Below, piece after piece: positions 628 to 61,116 of a DNA stretch of 64,000 nt (position 1 is the stretch's first letter; each line of letters begins with the position of its first letter). Origin of the DNA: an uncultured Gammaproteobacteria bacterium (GTDB lineage Bacteria > Pseudomonadota > Gammaproteobacteria > Steroidobacterales > Rariloculaceae); the NCBI GenBank assembly GCA_963699925.1, contig CAVOVT010000007.1:441008-505007 (forward strand), given 5' to 3'. Made by a program: the position numbers and the translations under genes. The notes below the pieces were generated by a model. The model was given only the letters and a program-made list of their open reading frames with translations, made no database searches and was not told the origin of the DNA.

Positions 628-1717
628 CTAGCGCTTGCCGAGGTGCTCGTCGAGCCGGCCGAGATCGCGAAGGTCGCGATAGTAGCTGTCGGGATCGCAC
701 GCGGACTGCTCGCCGATATCGACGATGATCGTCGCGCGCCGAGCCGCGTTTACGCACGAGCGGCTGCGTGTAGTACGGGTCGTAGATCGTGATCGTGCGC
801 TCCATCGATAGCTTGTCGGCGCTGAAGTCGTAGCGCTCGACGACGCGCGTGCCTTCGCCCTTCATCGGCAAACCGGAACCGTCGAGCCAGCCCGGCGCAA
901 GATGCGTCGTCTCGATTACGAGCGACGTGCCCTCCCAATGCCCGACCGAGAAGCCGAGCGACGAGGCGGTCGTGTCCGCCGGCGCGCTGCGGCCGTCCAT
1001 CCAGACGCGCCGCGGCGTGTTGTGCTCGGTGTAGATGAAGAGGTAGTGATTGCCCGCGTCGACGACCTCCATGTCGTACGGCGAGCCGATCAGCCGCGGC
1101 AGCCCGAGCGGCAGGCAGCGCAGCGCCGCGTCTTGCCAGTGATCGTTCGACTCGAACACGCGCCGGCCTTCGGCGGTGAACGGCGTCGGCTTCGGCTCGA
1201 GATCGTCGACCGTCAAATGCCAGTGGTACTTGTTGCGCCACGGCCCCGTGATGTCGACGGGATAGCTCGCACGCGGGGCTCCGTAGCCGTACGTCGTGCG
1301 CGTCGCGTGCACCTGGTTCGGGTCGGGGCCGGTGCTGTCGCGTCCGGTCGCGAGCTTCGAGCCGTCGGCACGCACGATCGAGCGCACGTAGAGCTTCTTC
1401 GCGCCGTCGCGGCCGAGCTGTCCGGATACGGTCACGACGTCGCCAGCCTTCAGCGTACTCGCGTTCCAGCCGAGCGCCTGCAGGGCCGTGATGCTGGACG
1501 CCTGCAGGTCCCAGTCCTCGGTCGAGCCGTCCTTCGCTTTGGTCGTGAGTCGGTAGCGGACGTGCGGGTTGTTCCACCAGACCTGCGCGATCTCGCCCTT
1601 GAGCTCGGCCGTGGCGTTCTCGTCGAACTCGGCCGCGAACGAGTGGTGCGCGCTCGCGGGCGCGGCCGCCGCGATGGCGAGACCTATGCTTGCAAGCAAC
1701 CCGAGCCGTCGGACCAT
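628..1717 (-). CDS. secreted DUF6152-like domain fused to two-Cys partner domain (frameshift near 720)
   Basis: signal peptide ending ASA|HHSFAAEFD, WNNPH; C-terminal half has CLPLGLPR..PY and GHWEGTSLVIET; alternate frame ends DIGEQSACDPDSYYRDLRDLGRLDEHLGKR* at 628. Confidence 0.8.
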
Positions 1718-1904
1718 GCGTCCCCCGCGCTTTGCTCAAGGATACGCGCGTTGGGCCCGCGCGGTCAGCACATTGCGTGCCGCGGAAGCGGGTCGAAGAG
1801 CCCGTTGCCCGCGGCGGCGGCGTTGTTGCAATCTCGCATCCGAACTGGATAGTACTTCGAGAAGGCCGCACGAGACGGCCGCACGTCAACGGGGGATCGC
1901 GATC

Positions 1905-4005
1905 ATGCCAAGCCATTGCCGGGTGCCCGTCACCGCTCCTTTCGCCACGCTCGCCTTGCTGCTCGCCGGCAGCGCCCACGCTCAAGCGCCTGCGATCGAC
2001 GCGGACGACATCGGTGGCGTCGTCACGAGCTCGAAGGGCCCCGAGGCCGGCGTCTGGGTGATCGCGGAGACGAACGCGTTCCAGACTCGCTTCGCGAAGA
2101 TCGTCGTGACCGACGACGCGGGTCGCTACGTGATCCCCGACCTGCCGCCGGCTAACTATCAGCTCTGGGTTCGCGGCTATGGGCTCTCGGACTCGGACAA
2201 GACCGCGGCGAAGCCCGGCGCGGTCGTGAACCTCACGGCGAAAATCGCGGCAACGCCCGCCGAAGCGGCCAAGGTTTATCCCGCGATCTACTGGTACTCG
2301 ATGCAAAAGCTGCCGAGCCCGAGCGAGGTCTCGAAGCTGCCGGGCGGCGTCGATCAATACGTCGCGTCGATCAAGAACCTCTCGTGCATCGGCTGTCATC
2401 AGATCGGCCAGCTCGCAACGCGCACGTTGCCGGCGCAATTCGGCCACGGCATGGAAGGCTGGGTGCGAAGGATCCAGTCCGGCCAAGCCGGCCGCGACAT
2501 GCTCGCGTCCGCGATGAACCAACTCGGCGGCGTGCCGCCGAAGTACCTCGGCGACTGGACCGACCGCGTCGCGGCCGGCGAGCTGCCGCACGCGCAGCCG
2601 CCGCGGCCGCACGGCGTCGAGCGCAACGTCGTCGCGACCGTCTACGACTGGGCGACGCCGACCGCGTACATGCACGACTTGAGCGGCACCGACAAGCGCA
2701 AACCGACCGTGAACCCGTACGGCAAGCTCTACGGCGCGCCCGAGCTCAGCACCGACGACTTCCCGATCCTCGATCCGAAGACGATGACTGCCACGTCGCT
2801 GCACGCCACGGTGCGCGACGCCGACACGCCGACGACCAAGAGCACGCCGCCGCAGATGGCGTCGAATTACTGGGGCGAGCGAGCCGATCTGGGACAGCAA
2901 AGCGAACGCGCACAACCCGATGCTCGATGAGACCGGCCGCGTCTGGTACACGGCCGTCGTGCGCGCGCCCCAGACGCAGCCCGCGTTCTGCAAGGCGGGC
3001 TCGGATCATCCGTCCGCGAAGCTGTTCCCGCTGAACCAGTCGGGGCGCCAGCTCGCGGTCTACGATCCGAAGACCGCGAAGTACACGTACATCGACACGT
3101 GCTACTCGACTCATCATCTGCAGTTCGCCGAGGACGCGAACAACACGCTCTGGACGAGCGGCGGCGGCCCGGTCGTCGGCTGGCTGAACCGCAAGGTGTT
3201 CGACGCGACCGGCGACGCGGAGAAGGCGCAGGGCTGGACCGCGCTGATCTTGGACACGAACGGCAACGGCAAGCGCGACGAGGGTTACACCGAGCCCGGG
3301 CAGCCGCTCGATCCGACCAAGGACGCGCGGATCAACGCGGCGTTCTACGCGATCATGCCGAGCCCGCTCGACGGCTCGATCTGGGGCTCGACGTACGGCT
3401 ATCCGGGCTCGATCGTGCGTATCGACCTCGGCAAGAACCCGCCCGCGACCGCGATCGCCGAGGTCTACAACGTGCCGAAGCCGGGCTTCGGCTCGCGCGG
3501 CGCCGACATCGACCGCAACGGCGTCGTCTGGGTGTCGCTCGGCAGCGGCCACTTGGGCTCGTTCGACCGGCGCAAGTGCAAGGGCCCGCTCAACGGCCCG
3601 AAGGCGACCGGCGATCAGTGCCCCGAGGGCTGGAGCCTCTATCGCTATCCGGGCCCGGGCTTCGAGGGCCGTCCCGACGAGAGCGCGGAAGCGAGCTATT
3701 ACAGCTGGGTCGACCAGCACAACGCGTCGGGTCTCGGCGCGAATACGCCGATGTCGACCGCGAACCTCGGCGACGGCGTCAATGCGCTCGTGAATGGCGA
3801 GTTCGTGACACTGCGGCTACCGTATCCGCTCGGCTTCTACACGAAAGGCTTCGAGGGCCGCATCGACGATGCTAACGCGGGCTGGAAGGGCCGCGGGCTC
3901 TGGGTGCCGAGCGGCGACCGCACGCCGTGGCTCAAGGAAGGCGGCAAGGGCACGAAGCCGCTCGTCGTGCACTTCCAGATCCGACCGGATCCGCTCGCGA
4001 AATAG
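1905..4005 (+). CDS. secreted protein: carboxypeptidase-regulatory-like N-domain, monoheme CxxCH, Vgb-like beta-propeller (frameshift near 2880)
   Basis: ORFs 1569..2930 and 2920..4005; GPEAGVWVIAET, TDDAGRYVIPDLP, CIGCHQ, repeated G-x-VW propeller blades. Confidence 0.75.
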
Positions 4006-4031
4006 CTCGCGAACGCTGAACGAGCCCGGGG

Positions 4032-4847
4032 CTAGAGTCCGGCGGGGCCTTTGAGGTGCTCGACGTCCTGGTTGTTCTCGTTGCAGATGTATTCCATCAG
4101 GTCCCAGCCGGGCCGCAGCGTGGCCGTGAATTTCACGGTGAACGGCTTCTTGTACGCGCCGGGATCGGTGATCGTGACGACGTTCTCGAGCGTCGCGGCG
4201 TCCTTGCGCGTATAGCGCTCGACCGTCTGCAGCTGCGTCGTGTGCGGGTGGCCGACGAAGTCGAACCAGAACTTGTCGTTGAAGCCGACCGTCTCGATCA
4301 CGAGCGTGTCGCCTTCCCAGTGGCCGATCGAGTGGCCGTACCAGGTCGGCTCGAGATCGTCGGGATGGCCGCGGCCGTCGACGAAGATCTGCCGGTAGCT
4401 GTGGATGTTGCCCTCGAACAGGAAGTACAGAATCGTCGCGTCGCCGTAGCTCGGCGTTTGTAGGATTCGCCACGGATACGGCGCGACCCGCGGCACGCCG
4501 GTCGGCAGGCAGCGCGCCTCGGGATCCTCGGACGATAGCCGGCTCTTCATGAGCTTCTCGGCTTCGGGCAGCATCACGATCTCTTCGCCGGGCAGCAAAC
4601 CCTCTTTGATGTCGCCGATCGGACCGCCGCCTTGCCATACGCCGGAGAGATCCGGCTTGCCGTTCGGCAAGCGCGGCGCGGGACCCTTCGGCTTTTGCGC
4701 CGCCAAGCGCGGCATTGCTCGCGCTGCCGCTGCCTGCGGGCGACGTGGCCGCGGCCGGCGTCGGCTGCGCGAGCGCTTGGAAGCTCGAGAGCGCTCAGCA
4801 GCGACGAGCGTGGCGAGGGGCATGCACGGGCTGCATAGGAAGGGCAT
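4032..4847 (-). CDS. DUF6152-associated two-Cys partner protein (N-terminus frameshifted)
   Basis: PDLSGVW, DPEARCLPTGVPR, PYP, GHSIGHWEGDTLVIETVGFND, MEYICNENN. Confidence 0.75.
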   Translation of the reverse strand: MPFLCSPCMPLATLVAAERSRASKRSRSRRRPRPRRPQAAAARAMPRLAAQKPKGPAPRLPNGKPDLSGVWQGGGPIGDIKEGLLPGEEIVMLPEAEKLMKSRLSSEDPEARCLPTGVPRVAPYPWRILQTPSYGDATILYFLFEGNIHSYRQIFVDGRGHPDDLEPTWYGHSIGHWEGDTLVIETVGFNDKFWFDFVGHPHTTQLQTVERYTRKDAATLENVVTITDPGAYKKPFTVKFTATLRPGWDLMEYICNENNQDVEHLKGPAGL

Positions 4848-4858
4848 CGCTCATCGGC

Positions 4859-5254
4859 TCAGGCTCCGCCGTCGGCGGCCGCGCGCGCGAACACGCGGCT
4901 GCCGTTCGCGAGCGTCACGACGCGCGCGTTGGCCATGTTCGCGCCGCTGCGCGCGAGCGAGCCCTCGACGGTCACGACGTCGCCTTCCTTGAGCGAGTTG
5001 CTCGCCCAACCTGCCGCTTCAGAACGTTCGGGCTCGCGAGCTCGAGGTTCCAGTTCGTCGTCTGGCCGTCGTCGCCCTTCACGTCGATGTAGAACCGCGC
5101 GTGCGGGTTCGTCCACTCGACCTTCGTGACCTTGCCCGTGAGCGTGACGGGCTTCGCGGCGTCGTACTCGCGCCGCGAACGAATGGTGCGCGAGCGCGGG
5201 CGCGGCCGCGACGAGCGACGCGCACGCGAGCAACGAGATCATCTTGATTGGCAT
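4859..5254 (-). CDS. DUF6152 family secreted protein (frameshifted)
   Basis: ALA|HHSFAA; alternate frame VEWTNPHARFYIDV; GW...LKEGDVVTVEG. Confidence 0.8.
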   Translation of the reverse strand: MPIKMISLLACASLVAAAPALAHHSFAARVRRREARHAHGQGHEGRVDEPARAVLHRREGRRRPDDELEPRAREPERSEAAGWASNSLKEGDVVTVEGSLARSGANMANARVVTLANGSRVFARAAADGGA

Positions 5255-5313: not shown

Positions 5314-5910
5314 TCATCGCGGCCCTGCTCCGCGCATCGCGTCGTCGACTCGGGCCCGAAGCTCCCGCTCGTCCACCCCGAGCGCGACGGCCTTGCGCAC
5401 CGCGTCCTCCGCGGCGTCCGCATCGCCCATGAACCCATAGGACTGCGCGAGCAGGACCCACCCCGAAGCGTCGTCCGGATGGGCCGCGAGGCGCTGCTGG
5501 AGGCCGCCGATCAGCGACGAGATCGGAGCCGCGGGCGCCGCCGGTCCCGGCGCGTCCGGAAGCGCGGTAGCTATCTCCGGGGGCTTCACGCCGGCGACGC
5601 CCGACGGCGACGCGGGCCAAGCGATGCTCTGCAGCGCCGCGAGCCTCGGCTCGACCTCCGCTTCGCCGGCTCGGTCGATATGCGCCTTCAAACCGACGCC
5701 CACGACCCACGCGACGAGCACGAAGGCGCCGAGCCAGCTCCGGAGCCTGAGCCGCCTGCGGCTCGCGAGCCAGAGCGAGACCGCGACGAACGCGCTCGCC
5801 AGCAGGATCACGCCGACGAGCACTTGGTCCTCCGACTCGATCTGAAAAACGCCGTGTGCATCGCGGCTAGGGTCCGACGAACGCCATGCCGACGCGCGGA
5901 CGCCGTTCAC
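5314..5910 (-). CDS. membrane-anchored TPR protein, CcmI/CycH-like (start uncertain, possibly near 5861)
   Basis: two hydrophobic helices followed by RLAAHPDDASGWVLLAQSYGFMG, resembling the CycH/CcmI TPR; directly downstream of a multiheme cytochrome. Confidence 0.6.
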   Translation of the reverse strand: MNGVRASAWRSSDPSRDAHGVFQIESEDQVLVGVILLASAFVAVSLWLASRRRLRLRSWLGAFVLVAWVVGVGLKAHIDRAGEAEVEPRLAALQSIAWPASPSGVAGVKPPEIATALPDAPGPAAPAAPISSLIGGLQQRLAAHPDDASGWVLLAQSYGFMGDADAAEDAVRKAVALGVDERELRARVDDAMRGAGPR

Positions 5911-5934
5911 ATACTCGGGCTTGCTTGCAGGCGT

Positions 5935-7554
5935 TCAATGCGCGGCGAGTCTCGCGGCCGCGGACGCGAGCGGGATGGCCGAGCCGGCCGCGCTCTCGGC
6001 GTAGTAGCGGACGAAGCGCTGCGTCTCGGCCGCGTCGTACGCGCGAAGATTGTCGGCCCAACGGAAGCCGATCGATTGGTATAGCAGCGAGACCTCGACA
6101 TGCAGCGCCGACGCACGCTCGCGGCCGAGGTCGACCTGATACGACACGCGATCGCCGCCGCCGACGAAGTCGGGGTCTTGCGCCGCATCGCCGTGCACGG
6201 CGACGTCGGCGTCCGCCGTCGCCTTGTCGAACCCATGCGGCAGCAAACGGTTGTCCTTCGCGTAGCGCTCGCCGCGCAGCAGTCCCGTCGTCGGCCGCCC
6301 GTCCCGGTCCACCATGATCGATTCGTAGATCTGCACCTCGTCGGCGCGCGTAATCTCGCGATGGTGCGGCTCGAACTTGAGTGGATCCTCGTCGTTGTCG
6401 TTGCCGGCGATCGAGCCGTCGGCCCGTGCCGCGCCCGAGTCGAACAGCACGGAGCCCGCGTCGTCCGTCACGCGCACGTGCAGCCAGGCACGCCGTGCGG
6501 GATACGCGGTCGGCAGCTTGTGCCCGCCGAGGTTCTCGACACGGACGTCGAACGCGAGCGTGCGGCCCGCAACCTTCGCCGACTCGATCGCGACGCGGGC
6601 GGCGGCGGAGCCCAAGTAGGCCCTCGTCTCGCGAATCCCAGCGTCGAGCTCTTGCGGCAGCGCGGCAACGCCGAGCTCGCCGCGGTACTTGTTCAGAATT
6701 CCGAGAATGAACGCGTTGCCGCCGCGGAACGTGTGTTGCGCGAGCGGCGGACGCGAAGCGCCGAAGATCGACGCAACGGGACCGTCCTCGCCGACTTTCG
6801 GCATGTGGCAGTCCTGGCAAGTTCGCGTCTCGCGATAGTCGCTGTGCCGCCACTCTTGATAGGGCACCTGCTCCGGCAACTCGCCGCTCACCTCGCCTCG
6901 CTCGTCGAGCGTCTGCGTGAAGAGCGTGTGGCAAGTCGCGCAAAGCTCCGCCTGGCGCACGTGCGCCGACTCGGTCGACTGGAACTGCGTGGCCGAGCGC
7001 ATCACCGACGCGCGTCCCGCGTCCACGGTATGCGGGCCGTACACCGCCCGCTCGCCGAGCGCCGTGCCGCGGTCGATCTCGAATCGGCCGTCGAAGCTCG
7101 CATCGGTGCCGAGATTCGGGGCAGTAATCTGATGACATACGGTGCAGGACACGCCGTCGAACGCTTCTCGATGCGCGGGCGCTGCGGGCGAGATGTTCGC
7201 GAACACCTGCCCGTGCTCGCCGTGCGTGACGGCGTCGAAGCGTGCCATCGGCATGTGGCAGGTCGCGCACTGGTCCTCGATCGCGCTCTGCGCGCTCGGA
7301 TGGTCAATGACCTCGCGGCGCACGCCGGCATGCCAATAAGGATCGCGCGCCGAGTTCGCCATGATCGTCGAGCGCCAGTCGTAGCCGATGGAGACGTCGT
7401 CGCCAGACGAGGTGTGGAGTCCACTGTGACACGCGATGCAGCGGTCCGACGTGACGAAGGCCGTCGTGGCGGCGGGCTCGCGATGGGCAGCGGCGGGCAG
7501 CACCGCGAGCGCCAAGATCGGAACGCAAACGATTCGCAACCGCATGATTTGCAA
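5935..7554 (-). CDS. pentaheme c-type cytochrome, exported
   Basis: signal peptide; five CxxCH motifs (CIACH, CATCH, CTVCH, CATCH, CQDCH); GHKLPT..P.RRAWL motif. Confidence 0.85.
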   Translation of the reverse strand: MQIMRLRIVCVPILALAVLPAAAHREPAATTAFVTSDRCIACHSGLHTSSGDDVSIGYDWRSTIMANSARDPYWHAGVRREVIDHPSAQSAIEDQCATCHMPMARFDAVTHGEHGQVFANISPAAPAHREAFDGVSCTVCHQITAPNLGTDASFDGRFEIDRGTALGERAVYGPHTVDAGRASVMRSATQFQSTESAHVRQAELCATCHTLFTQTLDERGEVSGELPEQVPYQEWRHSDYRETRTCQDCHMPKVGEDGPVASIFGASRPPLAQHTFRGGNAFILGILNKYRGELGVAALPQELDAGIRETRAYLGSAAARVAIESAKVAGRTLAFDVRVENLGGHKLPTAYPARRAWLHVRVTDDAGSVLFDSGAARADGSIAGNDNDEDPLKFEPHHREITRADEVQIYESIMVDRDGRPTTGLLRGERYAKDNRLLPHGFDKATADADVAVHGDAAQDPDFVGGGDRVSYQVDLGRERASALHVEVSLLYQSIGFRWADNLRAYDAAETQRFVRYYAESAAGSAIPLASAAARLAAH

Positions 7555-7592
7555 GCTTTTTGCGAGGCGTGGCGCTCACTATACTGCGCGCC

Positions 7593-8717
7593 ATGCCCCG
7601 TACAACCGAGCTTCGGCGCGTTTCTGTCGCGAGCACGGTGCTTGCCTCGATCGGCGCCGCACTGATCGCGTTCGGCACGGCGGCCGCCGAGAAGCCCGAC
7701 GGCGCGCGACTCTTCGACGCCGACTGCGCCGCGTGTCATGCGAGCGACGGACGCGGCCGCAGCTCGGCAGAGGTCGGGTTCGACCTGCCGCTGCCGAACT
7801 TCACCGACTGCAGGTTCGCTACGGCCGAGCCCGACAGCGATTGGTCCGCGATCATTCATCGTGGCGGCCCGCAGCGCGGTTTCGATCGAATCATGCCCGC
7901 GTTTCAAAACGCGTTGTCCGACGAAGAAATCGACGCGCTGATCGATCATCTGCGCAAGTTCTGCACGAATCCGCGCTGGCCGCGCGGCGACCTCAACATT
8001 CCCCGCGCAATGTTCACCGAGAAGGCGTTTCCGGAGGACGAAGCCGTCGTGACGATGACCGTCGTGACCGACGGGCCCGACTCGTTCGAGAGCGAATTCT
8101 CGTGGGAGCAGCGGATCGGGCTGCTGAGCCAAATCGAGGTGAGCCTTCCGATCGAGCGCGCCGATCTCGGCGATCCGACGGGCTGGAAGACCGGCGCGGG
8201 CGACCTCGCGATCGCGTTCAAGCACGTGCTCCATCACGATCTCGAGCGCGGCTCGATCCTGAGCGTCGGCGTCGAGGTCGCGCTGCCGACCGGCGACGAG
8301 ACGAACGGCTTCGGCACCGGCACGACGGTGCTCGAGGCTCGAGTTATGTATGACAAGCTGCTGCCGCACGACTCGTTCCTCGAGGTGCAAGGGCTCGCGC
8401 GCTTTCCGCACGATTCGGAGCTCGAGAACGAAGCCGAGCTCCGGATGGCGTTCGGCCGAACCTGGACTCAAGACGGCGGCTTCGGACGGGCCTGGACGCC
8501 GATGCTCGAGGTGCTCGGCCACCGGGAGCTCGTCGGCGGCGCCGAGACCGAATGGGACGTCGTGCCGCAGTTCCAGGTCACGGTGAGTGCGCGTCAGCAC
8601 ATCATCGCGGCCGTGGGCTGGCGAATGCCGGTCACGCAGCGCGACTCGCGCGTGAACGAGCTCGTGTTCTACCTGCTATGGGACTGGTATGACGGCCGCA
8701 TTCTCGAGGGGTGGTGA
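7593..8717 (+). CDS. monoheme cytochrome c fused to probable outer-membrane beta-barrel
   Basis: signal peptide, CAACH, distal Met in IMPAF; C-terminal ~230 aa of amphipathic strands ending VFYLLWDWYDGRILEGW. Confidence 0.7.
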   Translation: MPRTTELRRVSVASTVLASIGAALIAFGTAAAEKPDGARLFDADCAACHASDGRGRSSAEVGFDLPLPNFTDCRFATAEPDSDWSAIIHRGGPQRGFDRIMPAFQNALSDEEIDALIDHLRKFCTNPRWPRGDLNIPRAMFTEKAFPEDEAVVTMTVVTDGPDSFESEFSWEQRIGLLSQIEVSLPIERADLGDPTGWKTGAGDLAIAFKHVLHHDLERGSILSVGVEVALPTGDETNGFGTGTTVLEARVMYDKLLPHDSFLEVQGLARFPHDSELENEAELRMAFGRTWTQDGGFGRAWTPMLEVLGHRELVGGAETEWDVVPQFQVTVSARQHIIAAVGWRMPVTQRDSRVNELVFYLLWDWYDGRILEGW

Positions 8718-13462: not shown

Positions 13463-14314
13463 TCAGTACGCGACGCCGAGCTCCGCCGAAAGCTGCGCCT
13501 GCATCTCGGGCGGCACGTCGAGCGAGCCGATGGTGACGCCGTTCGGCGCTCCCGCGGCGATCCACCAGCGCACGATCGCAACCTGTCGATCCGTCAGCGG
13601 CGTCTTGCCCTCCGCCGGCATGAACTCCTCGTCGTCGTGCGGCAGCGAGATCCGGCGCAGCAGCTCGCTCTGCTCCGTGTCGCCCTTCACGATGACCTTA
13701 CCGCTGTCGCCGCCGCGCATCGCGGTCTTGTAAGACGTGAGATCGAGACCGTTCTCGCGCTTGTCGGAGTTGTGGCAGCCACCGCAGCGATCCTGAAAGA
13801 ATTTGCCGACGACGTCCTCGAACGGATCGGCCTCGTGCACGCTCGTGACCACGCGCCGCGGCGCGAGACCCACGAGCGCGCGCAGCGGTTGCGGCGCGTA
13901 TTCGACGAGATACGTCGAGCCGTGGGTGAGATTGCCGCCGAAGTGGCCCGTGATCGCGACGAGGAGCAGCAGCACCGCGGCCGCGGGAAAGAATACCGGC
14001 TTGTAGCTCGCGGCAAAGCTGCTCGTGCGCACCAACGCGACGACCGTCGCGATCAGGGCGACGGCCGTGCCGAAGTTGCGATGCTGCAGCCCCGACGAGC
14101 CGAAGTTGCCCTCGCTCAAGTGCAGGTAGCCGAGCGTTACCGTGACGAGCGCGGTGAGCGCCATCGCTCCCCAAAGGAACGGGGAAGCGGCCTCGAGATA
14201 TCGGTACTTCTCCTTGCGCGCGAGCCACTCGAGCACGAACAGCGCACAAATGATGCCGATCGGCAGATGGAGGACGAGTACGTGGAAACGGCCGAGAAAG
14301 TAGAGAAAGTCCAT
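13463..14314 (-). CDS. membrane protein (DUF2231-like helices) fused to Planctomycete-type cytochrome c
   Basis: GRFHVLVLHLPIG, TGHFGGNLTHG, CGGCHN, GLDL, SELLRRI.LP....MP. Confidence 0.75.
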   Translation of the reverse strand: MDFLYFLGRFHVLVLHLPIGIICALFVLEWLARKEKYRYLEAASPFLWGAMALTALVTVTLGYLHLSEGNFGSSGLQHRNFGTAVALIATVVALVRTSSFAASYKPVFFPAAAVLLLLVAITGHFGGNLTHGSTYLVEYAPQPLRALVGLAPRRVVTSVHEADPFEDVVGKFFQDRCGGCHNSDKRENGLDLTSYKTAMRGGDSGKVIVKGDTEQSELLRRISLPHDDEEFMPAEGKTPLTDRQVAIVRWWIAAGAPNGVTIGSLDVPPEMQAQLSAELGVAY

Positions 14315-14469
14315 CTGCGCGATACCCTGCCCTGAACGTGAGGGTGCGTACGATAAATCAGCGCCGCCGCGCGCTGCCAGCTTGACACGGCCGGGGCGCG
14401 CAGCGTGACCGTGGCAGCGAGCCGCGGACAATCCTTCGGCCGCGCACGACTCCTAGCTGCGCGCGGGGA

Positions 14470-19141: not shown

Positions 19142-20163
19142 TCAGAGCGCCTTCGGGAAGCGCTTGAACACCTTGCGTGCGTTGCCTTCGAAGATCTGCG
19201 CGCGCTGCGCAGCCGACAGCCTCTTGTTGCCGTCGACGTAGCGCTTCGTGTCGTCGAAGTAGTGCCCGGTCTCGGGATCGATGCCGCGCACTGCGCCGAC
19301 CATCTCGGACGCGAACAGGATGTTGTCGATCGGGATCACGTCGAGCAGCAAGTCGATGCCGGGCTGGTGGTAGACGCAGGTGTCGAAGTAGACGTTGTTC
19401 AGCACCGACTCCTTGAGCGGCGGCCGCTTCAGCATGTCGGCGAGCCCGCGGAACCGCCCCCAGTGGAACGGCACCGCGCCGCCGCCGTGCGGGATGATGA
19501 GCTTCAGGTCGGGAAAGTCCTTGAAGAGATCCGACGTCATCAGCTGCATGAACGCGACCGTGTCGGCCGCGAGGTAATAGGAGCCCGTCGTCTGGAAGTA
19601 CGGCGTGTTGCACGCCTCGCTCACGTGCACCATCGCGGGCACGCCGAGCTCGACCATCTTCTCGTAGAGCGGATACGAAGTAGCTTGTCCGCGAGGCCCG
19701 GGCCGTTGAAATAGCCGCCGCTCGTGTCGGGGTTCAGGTTGCAGCCGACGAAGCCGAGCTCCTCGACGCAGCGCACGAGCTCACGCACCGATTGGTCGAT
19801 CGCGACTCCCGGCGACTGCGGCAGCTGCGCGACGCCGACGAAGTTTTTCGGGTAGAGCTTCGTGAGCCTAAAGATCAGGTCGTTGCACTGCTCCGTCCAC
19901 GCCTTGCTGGTCGACGCGTTGCCGAGATGGTGACCCATCCAGCTCGCGCGCGGGCTGAAGATCGTGACGTCCGTGCCGCGCTCGCGCTGCAGCTTCAGCT
20001 GCGCGCCCTCCACGCTCTCGCGTAGCTGGTCGTCGCTGATCTTGAGCTCGCCTTTGACGGCCTGAGCTTGCGGATTCTTCTTGAGGTCGGCCTTCTGCTG
20101 GTCGCGATAGTCGCCGAGCGCTTTCGGCGTGGTGGTGTAGTGGCCGTGGCAGTCGATGATCAT
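19142..20163 (-). CDS. ligJ: 4-oxalomesaconate hydratase, amidohydrolase family (frameshift near 19670)
   Basis: MIIDCHGHYTT, SPRASWMGHH, LPQSPG, NLNPD, PHGGGAVPFHWGR, FASEMVGAVRGIDP. Confidence 0.8.
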
Positions 20164-20194
20164 CGCAACGCACCTGCAATCAATTGGGCCGCAA

Positions 20195-22346: not shown

Positions 22347-22579
22347 TCCGCTCCCCCTCGCCCGCTCGTCGTTCTCGTTTGCGGCCGGCTTCGCCGTTCG
22401 TTCACCCGCTAAGTATAGCGACGCGCGCGCGGGAGTCGCCGGGCGTCGCCCGGTCCTTGCGCCGGTCGCGCTTGACAGCGCTCGGGCCAGCGACTAAGAA
22501 GATTCGGTACCGGGTGGGGCCGCGCATCCTCGGCCGGACAAGAAGAACAACGACGTCAGACCTTCTCGGGGGAGGATCT

Positions 22580-23358: not shown

Positions 23359-24166
23359 TCACCCGACGAGCCTCGCGAGCGCGGCATCGAGCGCCGCGTC
23401 CGCGGGCACGTCGATTCCGAACAGGTCGCCGAGCACGCCGCGCAGCTCCCCCACGCTACGCAACGTGCGCTCCTCGCGCGCGCCATCAAGAGGCTGGATC
23501 GCGAGCTCGGCGTCGCGGAGCTTGAGCGTTCGGCTTCCGTCGCGCCGTGCGGCCATCAGGCCGCTCTTGAACGGCGACTCGGGATGCGCCGAGACGATAG
23601 AAGTTCAGCACCTCGATGTCGAGCTGCGACTGCTGCTGAAGATCGAAGCTGTAGAGCGAGCGCCATTCCCCGCGCACCCTCGCCTGCGGCACGTGCTCGG
23701 CGCCGTCGCGCGCGATCCGGAACGTTTCATGCGGCGTGGGCTGCTCGGCCTCCGTCGCCAGCAGCAACGGACCGGTCATCGTGAGCCCGCCGAAGCCGAC
23801 GTCGCAGACGTAGTACTCGCCCTTCAGCGGCACGAGCAGCGCCATGTGCGTGCGCGGGCGCGGCGCATCGTCGCTGCGGTCCCAAATCACGCGCGCGGAC
23901 AGGCCGATCACGCGAAACCCGATGGCCGTCAACACGTGAGTGAACAGCAGGTTCTGCTCGAAGCAGTAACCGCCGCGCCGCTCGAGGACGAGCTTGCGCT
24001 GCAGCGAGTCGACGTCGAGCGGGATAGGCACGCCGCGCAGCGTATCGAGGTTCTCGAACGGGATCGCGGTCGGGTGCAGCGCGTGCAGGACGGTCAGCGT
24101 CTCGAGCGTCGGCGTGCGGTCGCCCGTATAGCCGATACGGCGAAAGTAGGCGTCGAGGTCGAGCAT
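23359..24166 (-). CDS. arylamine N-acetyltransferase (frameshift near 23600)
   Basis: IPFENLD, RRGGYCFEQN (catalytic Cys), THM (His), DVGFGG (Asp). Confidence 0.9.
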
Positions 24167-43298: not shown

Positions 43299-45271
43299 TC
43301 ACGGCAGAGCGAACGCGACGAGCGCCTGCCCTTCCGGCGACTCGGCGCCGTCGATCGCGCTCGCGCCCGCGGCCACGATCGCAACGTACTGCTTGGCGTC
43401 CGGCCCGACGTACGTGATCGGAACCGCATGCGCGCTGAGCTCGAGCTTCCCAACCCAGAGCTCCGCACCGGTCCGCGAGCTGAATGCGCGGAAGCGCCGA
43501 TCGTTCGTCGCGCCGATGAACACGAGACCGCCGGCCGTTGCGATCGGGCCGCCGAGATTCACGCGCCCGGTGCGCCGCTTGGCCTCCGGAAGCTCCTCGG
43601 TGATGCCGAGCGGCACGGCCCAAGCGATCTCGCCGCTCGCCGCGTTGACCGCGACGAGCTGTCCCCACGGCGGTTTTTGGCATGGCCACGCGCGCTCGCC
43701 GCCGCCCGCGTCGTCGGGCGCCGTACCGCTCCACCAGAAGTGGGCGAACGGCCCCGCCACCGGGCTCGCGTGCCGGTAACGCGCGGCGTCATCCGCGGGC
43801 GCGCCCTCCCCCGCGGCTGCCGCGGCGTCGTCCGCGACCGCGTCCAGCCAGCCGAGGCTGCCGAGGTCAGACGTGTTCACGAACACGACGCCGAGCCGTC
43901 GGGTCCGCCGCCGCACCGCCCCAGTTCGCGCCGCCGATGGAGCCCGGGAACACGAGCGTCGTGCGCGGCGGCTTGCCTTCGGCGTGGAAGCGATACGGCG
44001 TGAACGGGCCGGAGCTCTGGAACCCGCCGCCGCGCTCGCGCAGCGCGCGGCAGAAGTCCGCGTGCATCGCGTTGGTGTCCTCGCGCGTCACGAGATCTTC
44101 GGGTGCAAACGAGACGCGCGCGATCGGCGGCGGCTTCAGCGGAACGGGCTGCGTCAAAGCCAAGTGCTCGCCCGGCACGTCGCTCGGGGCCACCGGCCGC
44201 TCCTCGACGCCGAACACCGGCACTCCGGTCGCGCGATTCAACACGTAGAGATAGCCGCTCTTGCCGGGCTGCGCGAGCACCGGGACCGTCGCGCCGCCGA
44301 TCGCGACGTCGAGCAGCGCGGGCGCCGCCGGCAAGTCGTAGTCCCAGACGTCGTGGTGCACCGTCTGAAAGTGCCAGCGGCGTTCGCCGGTGCGTGCGTC
44401 GAGAGCGACGACGGAGTTCGCATAGAGATTGTCGCCGGGTCGATCGCCGCCGAAGCCGTCGTCCGGCGCCGGGCCCGCGAGCGACGCGTAGAGCAGCGCG
44501 CGATCGACGTCGACGGTGAACGAGAACGACCAGCCCAGCACGCTCGCGCGCTCGGCGGACCGCGCTCCCCACGTCTCGCGACCCGGCTCGTCCGCTTGCG
44601 GCACCGCGTCGAACACCCAGACCGGCGCCCCGGTGCGCACGTCGAAGGCGCGCACGCCGCCCGGCGGACCGTTCGAGCCGACGATCAGTAGATTTTCGAA
44701 ACGAGTCGGCGCGGCGTTGTAGACGACCGGCATCTCGATCTCGCCCGTGCCGCCGAAGGAAAGCGCCTTGCGCCCGGTCGCGGCGTCGAGCGCGATCAGA
44801 CGTCGGCCGGCCGTGAAGAACACTCTGCGCGGGAGCGTCGCGGTCTCCCGGCCAATACGCGAGCCCCCGGCGCGAGGGCGAGCCGCGATCGAGCACGTGT
44901 CGCCAGAGCTCTTGACCGCTGTCGGCCTGCAACGCGACGACGCGGTCGGCGGCGGTGACGAACAAGGTCCCGGCAATCACGATCGGCGTGGCCTCGGAGC
45001 CGCCGGTGAGACTGCCCGTCGTCGTGTTGCGACCGAGCGGATAGACCCACGCTTGTTTGAGCTCCGCAACGTTGCCCGAGTCGATCTGCTCGAGCGGAGA
45101 GAAGCGCGTGCCCGCGAGATCGCGGTTGTACGAGGGCCAGTCGCCCGCGTCGAGGTGCTCTTCGACGGGCGGCGGCGCGAGCGAGGAGGTCGCGCTCGGT
45201 CCCGGCGAGCATGCCGCCAAGCCCGCGAGCGCACACGCCGCGACGACGCGCGGCGCGGTGATCCTGTGCAT
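43299..45271 (-). CDS. PQQ-dependent glucose/quinate dehydrogenase-like lipoprotein (frameshifted)
   Basis: LAAC lipobox, GTRFSPL, HHDVWDYDLP, PGSIGGANWGG, PCQKPPWG, GGPIATAGGLVF. Confidence 0.85.
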
Positions 45272-45423
45272 CGCGAGCCCTCCGGCCGTTCGGTCGCCGG
45301 AATTCTAGCACCGCGCGCACGCCGGCCCGGGCGGGAGGTAGCTCAAGTCGCGGCAGCGCTTCTCGCTCGCGACCGCGGCCGATACAATGTGGCGATTCGC
45401 TTAGGCGCCAATCGGACAGAACC

Positions 45424-45993
45424 ATGAACCGAACTCTTCGTCTCCAATTGTGGGTCGCCGCGGGGCTCGCAGGCAGCGCGTTCGCGTCGGCGGCCGAATG
45501 GAAGGTCGTCCCGGAGACGAGCAACGTATCGTTCACGGGCTCGCAGCAGGGAACGAAATTCAACGGCCGCTTCGGCACGTTCACGGCGCACATCAACCTC
45601 GACGCGAAGGACCCGACCAAGGGCACCATCGCGGGCACCGTCCAGGTCGACAGCGTCAACACACGGGATCACGACCGCGACTCGCAGTTGCTCGAGAAGG
45701 ACTGGTTCAACGCGAAGGAATTCCCCGAGGCGAAGTTCGAGTCGCAGAAGATCGAGAAGGCCGCGGACGGGTCTTATCAGGCGACCGGTAAGCTCACGCT
45801 CAAGGGCACGACGAAGCCCGCGGTCATGACGTTCACGTTCGGAACGGCACCGTCCGGCGGCGCGGGCTCCGCGCAGTTCGCGGGCACACTGAAAATCAAT
45901 CGCTTCGACTTCAACGTCGGCGAAGGCTGGAACGACACGAGCTGGGTGTCGCAGGACGTCGCTGTCGAGGTCAAGCTCGACCTGAAGCAGTAA
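45424..45993 (+). CDS. YceI family periplasmic lipid/quinone-binding protein
   Basis: signal peptide, FNGRF, VNT.D..RD..L...WF...FP, GKLTLKG, NRFDF. Confidence 0.9.
   Translation: MNRTLRLQLWVAAGLAGSAFASAAEWKVVPETSNVSFTGSQQGTKFNGRFGTFTAHINLDAKDPTKGTIAGTVQVDSVNTRDHDRDSQLLEKDWFNAKEFPEAKFESQKIEKAADGSYQATGKLTLKGTTKPAVMTFTFGTAPSGGAGSAQFAGTLKINRFDFNVGEGWNDTSWVSQDVAVEVKLDLKQ
45603..45823 (+). repeat. copy 1 of a 221-bp direct repeat (internal part of yceI)
   Basis: matches 48264-48484 with 8 mismatches by manual alignment. Confidence 0.9.
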
Positions 45994-46075: not shown

Positions 46076-47260
46076 TCAATCGCACACGAACGTGCCTTGA
46101 TCGACGGTGCACTCGTCGGGTGGACCGTACTCGTGCCAGTACGCGGTCAACCCCAGCCGCTCGGCAAGCGGCAGGAAGCGTGCATCGGCACGGAAGCGTT
46201 CGAGCCCGGTTTGCCACAGTCGCCAGTCTCCATCGACCATGGCGCCCGGCGCCATTCGATCGAGACACTGGTTCGCCAACTCATAGGCTGTGTCGAGCTC
46301 TCCCAGAAGCGCGTAGTAATAGCTGCTCTGCAGGCATGGGTAGACTCGTGCGAGGGTCGTTCCGCCCCCGCGGGGCGAGCCCGGCGCGGGATAAAGTTCT
46401 CGGCGCGCGGCGAGGGCGCGTCCCCGCAGGCTCGGATCCTCGAGTGCTGCGTAGACTCGCCGCACTACTTCTGCGGTGCGCAGCTCGTCTGGATCTTCCG
46501 AATTCAGCGCAGAGAGCGAGGCCGCGGCGGCGTCCGCGTACCGGTGAGAGCGCAGCGCGGCAAGCTCGTCCACCAGCCAGAAGTCGACGCGCGGCAGCCC
46601 GAGATCCTCTGCGAAGCGGGCGGACTCGATGGCGTCGGCATCGTGCCCGAGCAGGGATGCCGCGAAAGCACGTAACTGCACGACCGCCAGATTGGCCGGC
46701 GCGAGCCCGACGGCCGTGTCCTGCTCGGCGAGCGCCTCGCGCAGGTGTCCGACCTCATCGAGCCGGTAGCCTTCGGCCAGGTGCTGAGTCGCATCGCTCG
46801 GATCGAGGGCGATGGCCGCCCTGCCCTGCGTTTCCGACTCCACGAACTGCCGGCGCTTGCTTGCGGCGTTGCCGAGGACCTTGTGCGCATCGGCCAGGGT
46901 CGGATCGAGGCGCATCGCTTCTCGGCCCGCGCTCTCGGCCGCGGCCAGGTTCGCGAGCGGCTGAATCCCGAACCCGGCGGAGATCAACTTGGCCGTGCCC
47001 ATCATGGCGAGCGCACGGGCGAACTTCGGATCGCGATCGAGCGCTTGCTGGAAGTAATCCGCAGCACGCTCGAATCCGTGCCGGGTCGGCCGGTCCATGA
47101 ACGCCTCGCCTTTGAGGTAGAGATCGTAGGCGATCACATCCGTCGTGGGCGGCGAGCGGCTGAGCGAGACACCGTTCAGGTTGATCTTGAGCGCCCTCAC
47201 GATCGCGACGGCGAGATCGTCCTGCAGCGCGAACAGATCTGTGAACTTGCGGTCGTAGCG
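46076..47260 (-). pseudogene. 5'-truncated TolB-like/TPR regulator (C-terminal part only)
   Basis: begins abruptly at RYDRKFTDLFALQDDLA; TPRs; ends YW..YGPPD.C like 48588-50354. Confidence 0.7.
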
Positions 47261-47489
47261 CGTAAGACGAGCGTGATCTTGTCGCCCGGCTTGAGAGTCC
47301 GCGGCCGCCAGCCGCCGCGGTACAGCGACGCCGTTGCGCCCATCTGCACGCTCCATTCGACGGGCTGGTCGCCCGAGGCGACGATCAGCGGATCCAGCAA
47401 TGGGGATTGGTCCACTGGAACTCCTTGACGGTCCCCTCGATCTCGACGCTCTTGTCGGTGTCGAACATCGCGTAGGAGTGGTGCGCCAT
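47261..47489 (-). pseudogene. DUF6152 fragment lacking signal peptide and C-terminus
   Basis: MAHHSYAMFD...FQWTNPH, W...GW...LKPGDKITL, then breaks into the TPR fragment. Confidence 0.7.
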
Positions 47490-47493
47490 GTCG

Positions 47494-47539
47494 TTGACCA
47501 CTTTAGTGACCATAGGCATAATAGTGGTCATATAGTCAC
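47494..47539 (+). promoter_or_regulatory. sigma-70 promoter with overlapping inverted-repeat operator of the toxin-antitoxin operon
   Basis: TTGACC-17bp-CATAAT; TGACCA (x2) facing TGGTCA and TAGTCA. Confidence 0.7.
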
Positions 47540-48184: not shown

Positions 48185-48263
48185 CGCAGTCCAAAAGCTC
48201 ACGCTTGCACGAAGGGCGAAGCGCGGCGCGACCACCGCGTGCGTAGGAGCCCGCGACGGCGGC

Positions 48264-48484
48264 CGCGAAGGACCCGACCAAGGGCACCATCGCCGGCAGC
48301 GTCCAGGTCGACAGCGTCAACACGCGCGATCACGACCGCGACTCGCAGTTGCTCGAGAAGGACTGGTTCAATGCGAAGGAATTCCCCGAGGCGAAGTTCG
48401 AATCGCAGAAGATCGAGAAGACCGCGGACGGGTCTTATCAGGCGACCGGTAAGTTCACGCTCAAGGGCACGACGAAGCCCGCGG
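48264..48484 (+). pseudogene. duplicated internal yceI fragment (copy 2 of the 221-bp repeat)
   Basis: about 96% identical to 45603-45823; no start or stop of yceI. Confidence 0.9.
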
Positions 48485-48587
48485 CCGAGCTCAGACTTTG
48501 ACCTTGCGTCACGGGGTCCGTCGGACTACATAATCCAATTTCGACCCGTCGCGCGCCCGCCCAACGCGAACCGAGCGCGAGTGCTGC

Positions 48588-59628: not shown

Positions 59629-59793
59629 GGTAGGAGGCAGTCCGAACGCGCCTCGGGCCTGCCGGATACCGCAGCGGGACACGCGGCGCCACGATTTGAC
59701 AGCCGTGGCGGCGTTCACATAGAACGGCCCTTGCAGCATCGACGAGCGCTCGTCCGCCGCTCGAGGCGAACGGACGGCGAATGGGGGGAATTG

Positions 59794-60667
59794 ATGCGAG
59801 CTACACAAACGCGGAGCCAACCCGTGAGCACACCGATCCAAATTCCGTTCCTGAACCGCCGCGCAACGCTGTTCGCCGCGATCGCGGGCGCCGCCGCGGC
59901 GATCGCGGGCGTCGCAATGCTGACTCTGCACGCGAACGCAGCGGACCAGAATCCGGCAAAGATCGGCGGCAAACCGAACATGAACGGCATCTGGCAGGCC
60001 GATCGGCAGCGCGTATTGGAATCTCGAGGACCACTCGGCCTCGGGCTTGAGCAACTTTTGGCAGCTCGGCGCGATCGCCGCGATTCCGGCGGGCCAAAGC
60101 GTCGTCGAGGGCGGCACGATCCCGTACAAGCCCGAGGCGCTCGCGCAGCGAGACGAGAATCGCAAGGGCTGGCCGAAGACGGACCCCGAAGCCAAGTGCT
60201 ACATGCCCGGAATTCCGCGCGCGACGTACATGCCCTACCCGTTCCAGATCGTGCAAGGCGACGGCGACATCTTGTTCGTTTACGAGTTCGCGAGCGCGAA
60301 TCGCGTCGTGCACATGGCGAAGCACGAAGAGTCGCCGGTCGACAGCTGGATGGGCTGGTCGAATGGGCATTGGGAGGGCGACGCGCTCGTAATCGAGGTC
60401 ACGGGCTTCAACGATGGAACCTGGTTCGACCGCGCCGGGAATTATCACGGCACGTCGCTAAAAGTCACCGAACGCTACACGCTGAAGGACAAGGACCATC
60501 TTCAATACGAAGCGACGATCGAGGATCCGGAGACGTTCTCGAAGCCTTGGAAGATCTCGCTACCGCTCTATAGGTTGATCTCGCCGAACGCGCAGTTGCT
60601 CGAGTTCAAGTGCGTCGAGTTTTCTGAAGAGCTGCTCTACGGGGATCTGACGAAGAAAACCAAGTAA
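59794..60667 (+). CDS. two-Cys partner protein (frameshift near 60000)
   Basis: signal peptide; PNMNGIWQA, DPEAKCYMPGIPR, PYPFQI, GHWEGDALV, LEFKCVE. Confidence 0.8.
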
Positions 60668-60701
60668 GATTTGCCGAGCGCAAACAGGGGAGACCATCGC
60701 G

Positions 60702-61116
60702 ATGCGTAAAGTCTTGAGCGTTGTCGGCGGAGTGCTCGCCGCAGCCGCCGCACTGCCGGCGCTGGCCCACCACTCGTTCGCGGCGGAGTTCGACGCTGCC
60801 AAGCCCGTTCAAGCTCGAGGGCGTCGTGACGAAGATGGAGTGGATCAACCCGCACTCGTGGATTCATCTCGACGTGACCACCGCGAGCGGCGAAGTCCAG
60901 CATTGGATGGTCGAGGGCGGCGCGCCGAACGCGCTGCTGCGTCGCGGCTGGAACCGCAGCTCGCTGCCTGCCGGCACGAAGATCAAGGTGCAGGGCTTTC
61001 AGGCGAAGGACGGCTCGATGCGCGCCAATGGCCGCGACATCACGTTCGCGGACGGCTCGAAGCTGTTCGTCGGCTCGTCGGGCACGGGCGCGCCGGACGA
61101 GCGGCCGGAACAGTAG
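60702..61116 (+). CDS. DUF6152 family secreted protein (frameshift near 60805)
   Basis: ALA|HHSFAAEFD, MEWINPHSWIH, WMVEGG.PN.L.RRGW. Confidence 0.85.

Follow-up and report, generated by a model that had tools for sequence, protein, structure and literature searches.

What does a pair of small exported domains do when it recurs again and again along one stretch of DNA, now as neighbouring genes and now as a single polypeptide? The question is raised by a 64,000-nucleotide stretch (hereafter the window; G000:C7:441008-505007) of the genome of an uncultured gammaproteobacterium (G000; 4.65 Mb, 20 contigs, 68% GC), in which an initial annotation made from the sequence alone had noted five domains resembling DUF6152 (PF19649; here D) and five copies of a second domain without a named family (the partner, here P), and had read the two as an expanded metallo-enzyme or metal-handling system. 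We report that D and P make up a recurrent, functionally coupled exported module that, within a single genus of uncultured Gammaproteobacteria from soil, reaches ~50-110 copies per genome and is almost lacking from the sister families. Known before was that D belongs to the Pfam family DUF6152; new here is what sequence and models point to, namely an exported protein with an N-terminal His on an oligonucleotide/oligosaccharide-binding (OB) scaffold, together with a calycin partner.

D and P form a recurrent, functionally coupled module

All ten domains of the initial annotation were recovered, by translation, tblastn, Pfam and hidden Markov models (HMMs) of our own (Table 1). Four D copies in the window pass the gathering cut-off of PF19649 (27 bits) at 66-93 bits, the fifth, a fragment, being known from tblastn and our own HMM only, and the five P copies were found by tblastn at E values from 1e-8 to 1e-29 as well as by our HMM. 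Their arrangement also held, with three adjacent, co-oriented pairs in both gene orders (5254 to 4032 and 24240 to 25670 with D first, 59794 to 61116 with P first) and one fusion with D first (605-1717). The shared motifs ascribed to the partner, which in the window read PDLSGVW, CLPxGxP, GHSxGxWEGDTLVV and, with the C-terminal Cys, ExxCxEN, agree with the consensus of 50 homologues.

HMMs made from the genome's own copies were run over all six-frame open reading frames (ORFs) of G000 and returned 107 P loci and 75 D loci (76 raw, one duplicate removed), so that the family is indeed expanded, far beyond the window's five copies of each. A same-strand P lies within 600 bp of 63 of the 75 D loci, while two have a divergent P and ten have none; random placement gave on average 1.6 same-strand pairs and never more than 7 in 500 trials, and adjacency thus exceeds chance even at this copy number. 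D comes first in 39 of the pairs and P in 24. The same picture was seen in a relative whose genome is 100% complete (G003), where 52 D and 78 P matches were found and where 41 of the 52 D are paired with a same-strand P no more than 700 bp away (26 with D first, 15 with P first), four have a P on the opposite strand and seven have none.

The histories of the two domains run together as well. In the 44 modules where both domains are well covered, distances among D copies correlate with those among P copies (r=0.377, a value reached by none of 2000 permutations), and in 11 of the 44 the closest paralogues of D and of P sit together in one other module, indicating that modules mostly duplicated as units. 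The paralogues have diverged to a median pairwise identity of 0.32 for D and 0.26 for P and have kept their invariant residues, as is expected if one chemistry serves many specificities. Both domains are held in 15 stop-to-stop ORFs of G000, all with D first, of which 14 can be read cleanly and lack a second signal peptide, the other (C10:131104-132438) being frame-garbled; for the window fusion, 816 homologues were found at E<=1e-3, and all 120 of those listed are ~362 aa long and carry PF19649. When the 44 modules were placed on a tree, a single clade of 18 rows took in 14 of the 15 fused forms; parsimony requires five changes and well-supported branches force at least two, and gene order flips repeatedly among the unfused modules. 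Because 14 of the 15 stand in a single clade, the fusions argue for functional linkage but not for 15 independent events.

In summary, adjacency, the occurrence of both gene orders, conserved fusions and co-divergence support the earlier proposal that the two domains work together. A complex prediction for a mature unfused pair (L017; alignments of 43 and 31 rows) scored 0.07/0.08 against a mark of 0.32 in a run without controls, and speaks neither for nor against this.

D has an export signal directly before His-His and is modelled as an OB-fold

His-His was found in all 65 G000 copies of D that retain the N-terminal part. Cleavage sites were predicted by rule in the 62 copies with at least 20 in-frame upstream residues, and position -1 was Ala in 61 of them, position -3 was A, V, S, T or C in 60, the stretch from -16 to -5 had a median hydropathy of 2.08, and position +3 was Ser in 52 and Gly in seven. 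Since the residues at -3 and -1 fit the classical (-3,-1) rule for signal-peptidase I, cleavage is expected directly before His-His, and His is predicted to be residue 1 of mature D, in keeping with the A-x-A site that had been suggested. The further suggestion that every intact copy begins with His-His-Ser stands for four window copies, in which A-x-A is followed by HHS; the fifth also has HHS but lacks an in-frame signal peptide. An RR pair occurs in the n-region of 25 of the 62 signal peptides (for example MVRRLGLL in the window fusion), and D may be exported by the twin-arginine translocation (Tat) route beside Sec; Tat substrates fold and can take up cofactors before export.

A third His was confirmed in every copy scored: 58 D copies carry HH followed 20-34 residues on by Asn-Pro-His (53 copies) or Ser-Pro-His (five), and 55 of these 58 also carry an Asp at +8 to +11. 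Residues H1, H2, S3, D9, G18, P28 and H29 are invariant in 31 D orthologues and paralogues, as are H24, H25, N50, P51 and H52 in 34 fusions.

An AlphaFold2 (AF2) model of an intact fusion had a mean predicted local distance difference test score (pLDDT) of 78.6 and a predicted template modelling score (pTM) of 0.56. Its D part, with pLDDT ~90, is ordered b1-b2-b3-helix-b4-b5 by DSSP, and its best structural match is the SSB chain 4dam_A (Z 9.9, root-mean-square deviation 2.8 A over 81 residues); Foldseek likewise placed SSB/PriB first for D at E 4e-4 and probability 1.00. Among the matches listed, all those over model residues 28-120 are OB-folds (SSB, PriB, RPA, MCM and the N-domains of aminoacyl-tRNA synthetases), the remaining rows matching the calycin half. 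As modelled, D is an OB-fold of ~100 residues with a five-stranded barrel. A comparison of DUF6152 with PDB sequences gave no match at E<=1, NCBIfam gave none for any window copy of D or P, and a search of the ESM Atlas with D returned DUF6152 clusters only.

P is modelled as a calycin-type barrel

P orthologues carry Sec-type signal peptides. The AF2 model of P, made with 50 sequences, reached pLDDT 84.5 and pTM 0.80 and consists of a helical N-terminal segment and an antiparallel barrel, for which the structural matches were CRBP-IV (Z 8.0), nanoKAZ luciferase (7.9), LBP-8 (7.5), UnaG (7.5) and nitrobindin (6.6), followed by the CpeS lyase (6.6), a haemophore (6.2) and Rv2717c (6.0). Nearly all of the top matches are calycins, with Z up to 8.1 when the fusion model was used, and Foldseek found FABP/CRABP at E ~1e-2 with the P model and 5e-4 with the fusion model (probability 0.97-1.00). 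At the level of the fold, P is in these models a calycin-type (FABP/nitrobindin-like) beta-barrel of ~210 residues; homology is not claimed, the Z scores being middling.

The initial annotation had left the partner unnamed, and we also found no family for it in Pfam or NCBIfam; its profile from 50 sequences matched no PDB sequence at E<=1, and the ESM Atlas gave no named look-alike for it at a score of 0.9 or more, the clusters below 0.9 being unnamed, DUF3471 or of low share. Near-invariant in P (P0007 numbering) are G64, D67, G70, W72, P110, C114, P116, G118, R153, D158, R160, G172, S174, G176, W178, E211, R212, D229, P230, E253, C256 and E258, with no His or Met cluster among these columns. 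Both Cys are conserved in the fusions too, and a disulfide between them is likely, as P is periplasmic.

Distribution of D and P beyond the source genome

The expansion is confined to one lineage. PF19649 has 52-113 matches per genome in all 18 same-genus genomes searched and, among 12 genomes that represent other families of the order, a single match in one; the P profile has at least 77-89 matches per genome in the same 18 and none in those 12. Of 300 further genomes of the class, sampled evenly and each at least 90% complete, eight show one weak match to D apiece (E 1e-8 to 1e-10), a count that rests partly on the unpublished genome G289. Of five such distant single-copy D proteins that were read, four keep the signal peptide, A/HHG (a slash marks the predicted cleavage site) and GNPH with no partner. 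At ~130-200 loci per genome, the module implies a central but uncharacterised part of periplasmic physiology in this genus.

The fused form is found in many metagenome-assembled genomes (MAGs) of uncultured Gammaproteobacteria, including Candidatus Rariloculaceae, Woeseiaceae and Pseudohongiellaceae, and matches at 26-41% identity come from Acidobacteriota MAGs and from the cultured Aurantiacibacter flavus, A. xanthus, A. suaedae and Sphingobium nicotianae. In A. flavus a D gene (ASA/HHSF...FTNPH) precedes a P gene that carries a signal peptide itself, and a TonB-dependent receptor adjoins the D/P pair there and in S. nicotianae; in an Acidobacteriota MAG, P precedes D and the N-terminal motif of D is kept. 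Cultured carriers of a single pair, such as A. flavus, make the question of function directly testable.

P by itself is much more widespread. With 90% clustering, at least 7,772 candidates match (of 8,000 scored), and with 50% identity clustering there are 11,806 representative clusters at E<=1e-3 and 5,410 at E<=1e-10. A Pfam scan of the P homologues covered 44 of 150 listed representatives: 21 of the 22 forms of ~335 aa are CarboxypepD_reg plus P, and seven of the 11 forms of ~355 aa are P plus DUF3471, while eight forms of 368-531 aa and three standalone forms had no Pfam match. Seven of these eight are 454-531 aa long, and most of the seven match in two or three stretches, consistent with tandem P-P. 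P is thus a general module that joins different small beta-rich domains, and D-P is one such solution, hugely amplified in this genus. In G000 itself, our local HMM found no CarboxypepD_reg-type match and only one P plus DUF3471-like fusion, C3:140737-141816(+), which is divergently paired with a DUF6152 gene at C3:140336-140620. Being a very large family without a Pfam model, P would, once defined, annotate thousands of 'hypothetical' soil-metagenome proteins.

A proposed metal site in D that would work with a molecule held by P

Starting from the export signals, the cleavage-site pattern, the two folds, the genomic coupling, the fusions, the co-divergence and the lineage-specific expansion, we tentatively propose, as the likeliest of the explanations considered though one that may well turn out wrong, that D and P are a two-part exported metalloprotein module on a new scaffold, in which a metal site would act on or with a molecule in the P barrel and the paralogues would differ in specificity. 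Cleavage after A-x-A would leave D with a free His-His-Ser or His-His-Gly amino terminus. The alpha-amino group of this terminus and the imidazole of His1 may chelate a 3d transition metal, for which Cu(II) and Ni(II) are chemically the likeliest candidates, and the remaining ligands could come from the invariant His2, Asp9 and Asn-Pro-His29; an N-terminal Xaa-His is a strong Cu(II) motif. The P barrel would hold a small organic ligand, and the two parts would act together, presumably in physical contact, either as adjacent gene products or as a single D-linker-P polypeptide, so that the metal site could work on or with the barrel-held molecule by oxidative catalysis or by metal-dependent capture. 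The paralogues, ~26-32% identical and with the same invariant residues, would then differ in ligand specificity.

A narrower form of this proposal appears improbable to us as it stands: a two-component periplasmic Cu (or Ni) oxygenase or peroxygenase, in which a histidine-brace-like His-His site on the OB-fold would face a substrate in the lipocalin barrel, with ~100 substrate-specific paralogues. If true, it would be a small-molecule counterpart of the lytic polysaccharide monooxygenases (LPMOs) in abundant uncultured soil Gammaproteobacteria, with single-pair versions in Aurantiacibacter and Sphingobium.

Several observations weigh against the proposed metalloprotein module. The metal, the ligand and the activity assigned to D and P are deduced from sequence and models. 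In the fusion model, pLDDT drops below 50 at residues 20-24, so the position of His-His relative to N-P-H is not confidently predicted, nor is the orientation of D towards P (pTM 0.56); moreover, NPH stands at the b1-b2 turn of the model, separated from HH by as many as 25 residues of a long strand, and the three His would therefore not need to cluster in one monomer. The consistent lead of D in the fusions was dropped as an independent statistic, the fusion events being few (at least two). The initial annotation's view of the pair as a unit holds for the coupling in this genus, but the pairing is neither obligate nor universal: no P was found in any of the five tested genomes with a single distant D, 42 of the 107 P loci in G000 have no adjacent D, P is elsewhere fused to CarboxypepD_reg or DUF3471 and not to D, and DUF6152 was absent from the 44 scanned P homologues. 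No metal-homeostasis genes were noticed among the recurrent neighbours of the modules, the only neighbours enriched even nominally being dehydrogenases dependent on pyrroloquinoline quinone (PQQ), of which 13 lie within 4 kb of modules against 4.8 expected (p ~4e-4, uncorrected, with counts inflated by frameshift-split ORFs), and ~100 copies per genome is unusual for metal handling.

The main rival, which we consider possible but doubtful, is a non-catalytic periplasmic carrier, in which P would shuttle hydrophobic or anionic small molecules (for instance substrates or products of periplasmic quinoprotein dehydrogenases, or the cargo of outer-membrane receptors) and D would be a docking or oligomerisation adaptor, its His-His helping to dock or holding a metal in a structural role, with no share in any chemistry on the ligand. 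Calycin folds typically belong to carriers, and the top matches of P are FABP, CRBP, LBP-8, lipocalins and a haemophore; P also pairs with interchangeable small domains (DUF6152, CarboxypepD_reg, DUF3471), just as an adaptor model predicts. Such a carrier would, however, leave unexplained the invariance, kept even by homologues that have no partner, of Asp9, of N-P-H and of the His-His that directly follows the predicted cleavage site, and the polar set of P (Arg, Asp, Arg, Ser, Glu-Arg, Asp-Pro and Glu-x-x-Cys-x-Glu) resembles a fixed functional site, not a variable pocket. In the genomic surroundings, the nominal enrichment of PQQ dehydrogenases (13 against 4.8), the TonB-dependent receptor beside the pair in A. 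flavus and S. nicotianae, and the YceI-like and Mla lipid-handling genes in the window would suit a carrier, but no third gene is consistently linked.

Pure metal handling, with D capturing or buffering a metal much as DUF4198, DUF6702, the 'anglerases', CopC or CusF do, P as the metal receiver or chaperone, no organic substrate, and an expansion that reflects metal-rich or metal-poor soils, seems to us rather improbable. Precedents for it are CusF, an OB-fold periplasmic copper chaperone, and ZinT/YodA, a calycin-like periplasmic metal binder with a His-rich N-terminus, and it would accord with D keeping its motif when P is absent and with the TonB receptor that neighbours the pair in two alphaproteobacterial genera. 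Yet ~75 diverged D and more than 100 P paralogues per genome are hard to justify for a few metals, P has just two conserved Cys and no conserved His/Met cluster, and no metal transporters or regulators occur among the recurrent neighbours, even though the N-terminal-His logic laid out in the main text of PMC12537917 would serve this explanation as well.

Handling of haem or another tetrapyrrole, by a nitrobindin- or haemophore-like barrel to which D would supply an axial His, loosely like the OB-fold haem chaperone CcmE, is very unlikely. Nitrobindin (Z 6.6-7.8), Rv2717c (6.0), phycobilin lyases (6.6 and 4.9) and the haemophore (6.2) do occur among the matches of P, but they are no better than the FABP and luciferase matches, and P has no conserved His; one window pair does lie beside TPR_CcmH-like and multi-haem cytochrome genes (5317-8714), but the copy number is far above what haem trafficking needs. 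CcmE is absent from the 50 OB matches listed, although D may still resemble it.

Finally, that the copies are non-functional, as decaying pseudogenes or assembly artefacts, is hardly credible despite the frame-broken ORFs of nine of the ten window domains, given that frameshifts also hit unrelated genes (Amidohydro_2, PQQ dehydrogenases, NAT) in a genome that scores 61.7% complete in 20 contigs, that intact orthologues exist at 93-94% identity, that relatives' contigs differ by 1-nt indels at the frame breaks, that in G000 a single frame spans nearly the whole of 56 of the 107 P loci and of 57 of the 76 raw D loci, and that both families are found in all 18 same-genus genomes.

Frame breaks in the window

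At least one frame break was found in the ORF of every window D or P domain except the D at 24240-24647, the sole one in a fully intact ORF; the breaks fall in the signal peptide, in mid-domain or in the C-terminal tail. Since unrelated window genes are likewise split or truncated (an Amidohydro_2 gene, two PQQ dehydrogenases, an N-acetyltransferase, MlaE, HpaB and others), the breaks are not peculiar to the D/P family. The contigs of relatives, when compared with the window, omit one base at 5170/5171 in all four sequencing runs compared (one or two contigs each), one contig of run X3 differs at 5154 and 5160, and one low-depth X3 contig has six further single-base indels at 4789-4851; the indels at 5154-5171 fall within the D at 4859-5254, and the positions of the single-base indels coincide with the window's frame breaks. 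The source strain was not found in the public sequencing runs, where the best share of sampled words was 0.18, and the run contigs that match the window come from relatives and paralogues stacked on conserved motifs, from which depth, expression and habitat are unreadable. The frameshifts are most likely assembly indels and less likely strain-specific lesions, and the assembly looks like an indel-rich product of the long-read type; the family was analysed by way of its intact copies.

Neighbouring genes and other features of the window

The coordinates of the module copies and of the other window features are collected in Table 1.

Table 1. Module copies and other features of the window (window positions; a slash marks the predicted cleavage site)
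Feature	Position	Strand	Remarks
D-P fusion gene	605-1717	-	signal peptide, A-S-A/HHS, D (HMM ~1361-1651), linker, P (HMM ~731-1258); D half matches Pfam DUF6152 at E 7e-21; last ~45 codons out of frame relative to intact 362-aa orthologues (alignment with the 93%-identical P0277)
D gene, first of D-then-P pair	4859-5254	-	Pfam E 3e-18 on 4975-5238; tblastn frames -1 and -2; signal peptide and A-L-A/HHS in frame, mid-domain in another frame (two frameshifts), C-terminal part back in frame
P gene, second of the same pair	4032-4847	-	domain intact, two Cys; own HMM positions 1-209; N-terminal ~45 codons without signal peptide, 82-94%-identical orthologues having a Sec signal peptide; frameshift near the start likely from this comparison
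D gene, intact, first of D-then-P pair	24240-24647	+	Pfam E 7e-26; probable ATG 24270; signal peptide, A-F-A/HHS, then W-T-S-P-H
P gene of that pair	24666-25670	+	tblastn pieces 25063-25494 and 25557-25658; own HMM; at least two frames: signal peptide in the 24666 frame, domain in the 24703-25560 frame, C-terminal Cys motif in the 25512-25667 frame
Lone P, no D nearby	33967-34947	-	several frames; HMM pieces ~34123-34669, positions 3-179 in two parts; tblastn
Lone fragmentary D	47236-47531	-	two frames; tblastn E 1e-9 to 1e-5; own HMM positions 1-84 in two parts; HHS present, no in-frame signal peptide; nearest P 12.5 kb off
P gene, first of P-then-D pair	59794-60667	+	domain 60047-60634 in one frame, N-terminal part in another; tblastn E 4e-29; own HMM 8-201
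D gene, second of that pair	60702-61116	+	Pfam E 1e-26 (60721-61116); signal peptide and A-L-A/HHSFAAEFD in the 60702 frame, W-I-N-P-H onward in the 60721 frame (one frameshift)
TPR_CcmH-like, multi-haem (cytochrome c3/MtrC-like) and cbb3-type cytochrome c genes	5317-8714		adjoin the D-P pair at 4032-5254
PSCyt1 domain	13466-14452	-	planctomycete-type domain
Amidohydro_2 gene	19145-20232		split or truncated
PQQ/glucose-sorbosone dehydrogenase gene	20198-22493		PQQ dehydrogenase with cytochrome c domain; split or truncated
N-acetyltransferase gene	23362-24352		split or truncated
PQQ/glucose-sorbosone dehydrogenase gene	27320-28690		
MlaA, MlaC and MlaE lipid-transport genes	30103-33662		
MlaE gene	31273-31569		split or truncated
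PQQ/glucose-sorbosone dehydrogenase gene	35169-36974		
HpaB gene	40567-41454		split or truncated
PQQ/glucose-sorbosone dehydrogenase gene	43870-44976		second PQQ dehydrogenase that is split or truncated
YceI-like (lipocalin-type, polyisoprenoid-binding) genes	45262-45990, 48247-48498		flank the lone D fragment
PQQ/glucose-sorbosone dehydrogenase gene	61969-62610		

PQQ-dependent dehydrogenases, together with a glucose/sorbosone dehydrogenase, form a second expansion in this genome, with several genes per 64 kb and a genome-wide cluster of 31 ORFs; their association with the modules is weak. Beside the fusion gene, ORF 1557-2927(+), of 457 aa, has a sub-threshold CarboxypepD_reg match (28 bits against a cut-off of 32), and neither this ORF nor ORF 2788-4002 shows similarity to P even at E<=10.

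At the end of the window, and running past it, 63192-63998(-) belongs to a family without a Pfam match, represented by L008 (G000:C3:215489-217132, 548 aa). Seven of its 12 ORFs in G000 lie within 4 kb of modules (p ~8e-4, nominal), but as a third component of the module it was rejected, the distance ranging from 158 bp to 68 kb on either strand. An ankyrin-repeat family with ~28 ORFs in G000 (L005, C19:88974-90941) has nine members near modules against 4.4 expected (p 0.02). Besides PSCyt1 in the window, this gammaproteobacterium carries another set of planctomycete-type domains, DUF1592/DUF1588/DUF1585/DUF1595/DUF1587, at L007 (G000:C19:92024-94546), with ~16 ORFs in G000.

Comparison with known systems

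The folds of the two domains invite comparison with several named families. For D, SSB and PriB are the best matches (Z 9.9-8.0, root-mean-square deviation 2.2-3.4 A over 76-85 residues, covering 28-120), but at an identity of 9-25%; they are cytoplasmic nucleic-acid binders without an N-terminal His, whereas D is exported, and no function can be read from the common fold. CusF, a Cu(I)/Ag(I) chaperone of the periplasm with internal His/Met/Trp ligands and a single gene in an efflux operon, is like D a small periplasmic OB-fold, and a metal role is plausible for D too, yet it differs from D in lacking the N-terminal His motif and the expanded, paired family; Pfam CusF_Ec matched no window copy at E<=0.01, and CusF, CcmE and BOF/YgiW are not among the 50 listed OB matches, a similarity to them being still possible.

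On the side of P, the calycins (FABP/CRBP, nitrobindin/THAP4 and bacterial lipocalins) match its barrel, of the 10-strand type, at Z 6-8 and Foldseek E 5e-4 to 1e-2, and P has on its first strand the G-x-W motif that is a hallmark of lipocalins. Unlike the named calycins, it has an extra helical N-terminal segment, two Cys and polar residues of its own, and no sequence relationship to them is detectable. The two fold types of the D-P fusion also meet in one envelope protein in NlpE/CutF, an outer-membrane lipoprotein with a lipocalin-like and then an OB barrel, a CXXC motif, a single copy per genome and a historical link to copper; there, however, the domain order is the opposite, with the lipocalin-like barrel first, the protein is a lipoprotein and has no N-terminal His, and Pfam NlpE matched none of the window copies.

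The closest parallel in N-terminal chemistry is with the N-terminal-His metalloproteins (LPMOs, CopC, YcnI, DUF4198, DUF6702 and Ang-1/Ang-2), which D resembles in the signal peptide directly before His, in further conserved His and Asp as candidate ligands, and in its periplasmic or secreted location. They are built on an immunoglobulin (Ig)-like or cupredoxin-like sandwich, whereas D is modelled as an OB-fold; in D, moreover, residue 2 is also an invariant His, the domain is coupled or fused to a calycin barrel, and there are 50-110 copies per genome. The CopC Cu(II) site consists of the N-terminal His, an Asp and a His, and by sequence D has invariant residues that are candidate counterparts, H1, D9 and H29, plus H2. 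For the T-shaped Cu brace of LPMOs, made by a mature His1 and a second His, the sequence of D likewise offers the predicted His1 and further invariant His as candidates.

The kinship with LPMOs and CopC that the initial annotation had seen in a histidine brace does not hold for the fold, since D comes nearest to SSB/PriB and is neither Ig-like nor cupredoxin-like. No LPMO occurs among the 50 listed structural matches of either fusion-model search and no Ig-like or fibronectin-III-like fold was found; CopC (PF04234) gave no Pfam match at E<=0.01 for the window module copies or at E<=1e-4 in the window scan, and no cupredoxin-like fold was seen. Any 'histidine brace' on D would be an analogy on a new scaffold and not membership of the LPMO or CopC family. 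The literature searched held no mention of 'DUF6152' or 'PF19649', nor of 'histidine brace' together with 'OB-fold'.

The chemistry itself would not be tied to one scaffold. According to the main text of PMC12537917, an N-terminal His chelates 3d metals through its NH2 group and imidazole whatever the fold, with other His or Asp residues filling up the site, which an Asp can augment; PMC10952591 also treats a mature N-terminal His as a 3d-metal chelator. The former, a signal-strapping study of 2025, characterised DUF4198, DUF6702, Ang-1 and Ang-2 (these two called 'anglerases') as N-terminal-His proteins, and DUF6152 is not among the four classes of its main text (PMC12537917). If D does bind a metal through its N-terminus, it would add both a new scaffold, the OB-fold, and a new architecture, the calycin partner, to the short list of N-terminal-His metalloproteins, the class that yielded the LPMOs.

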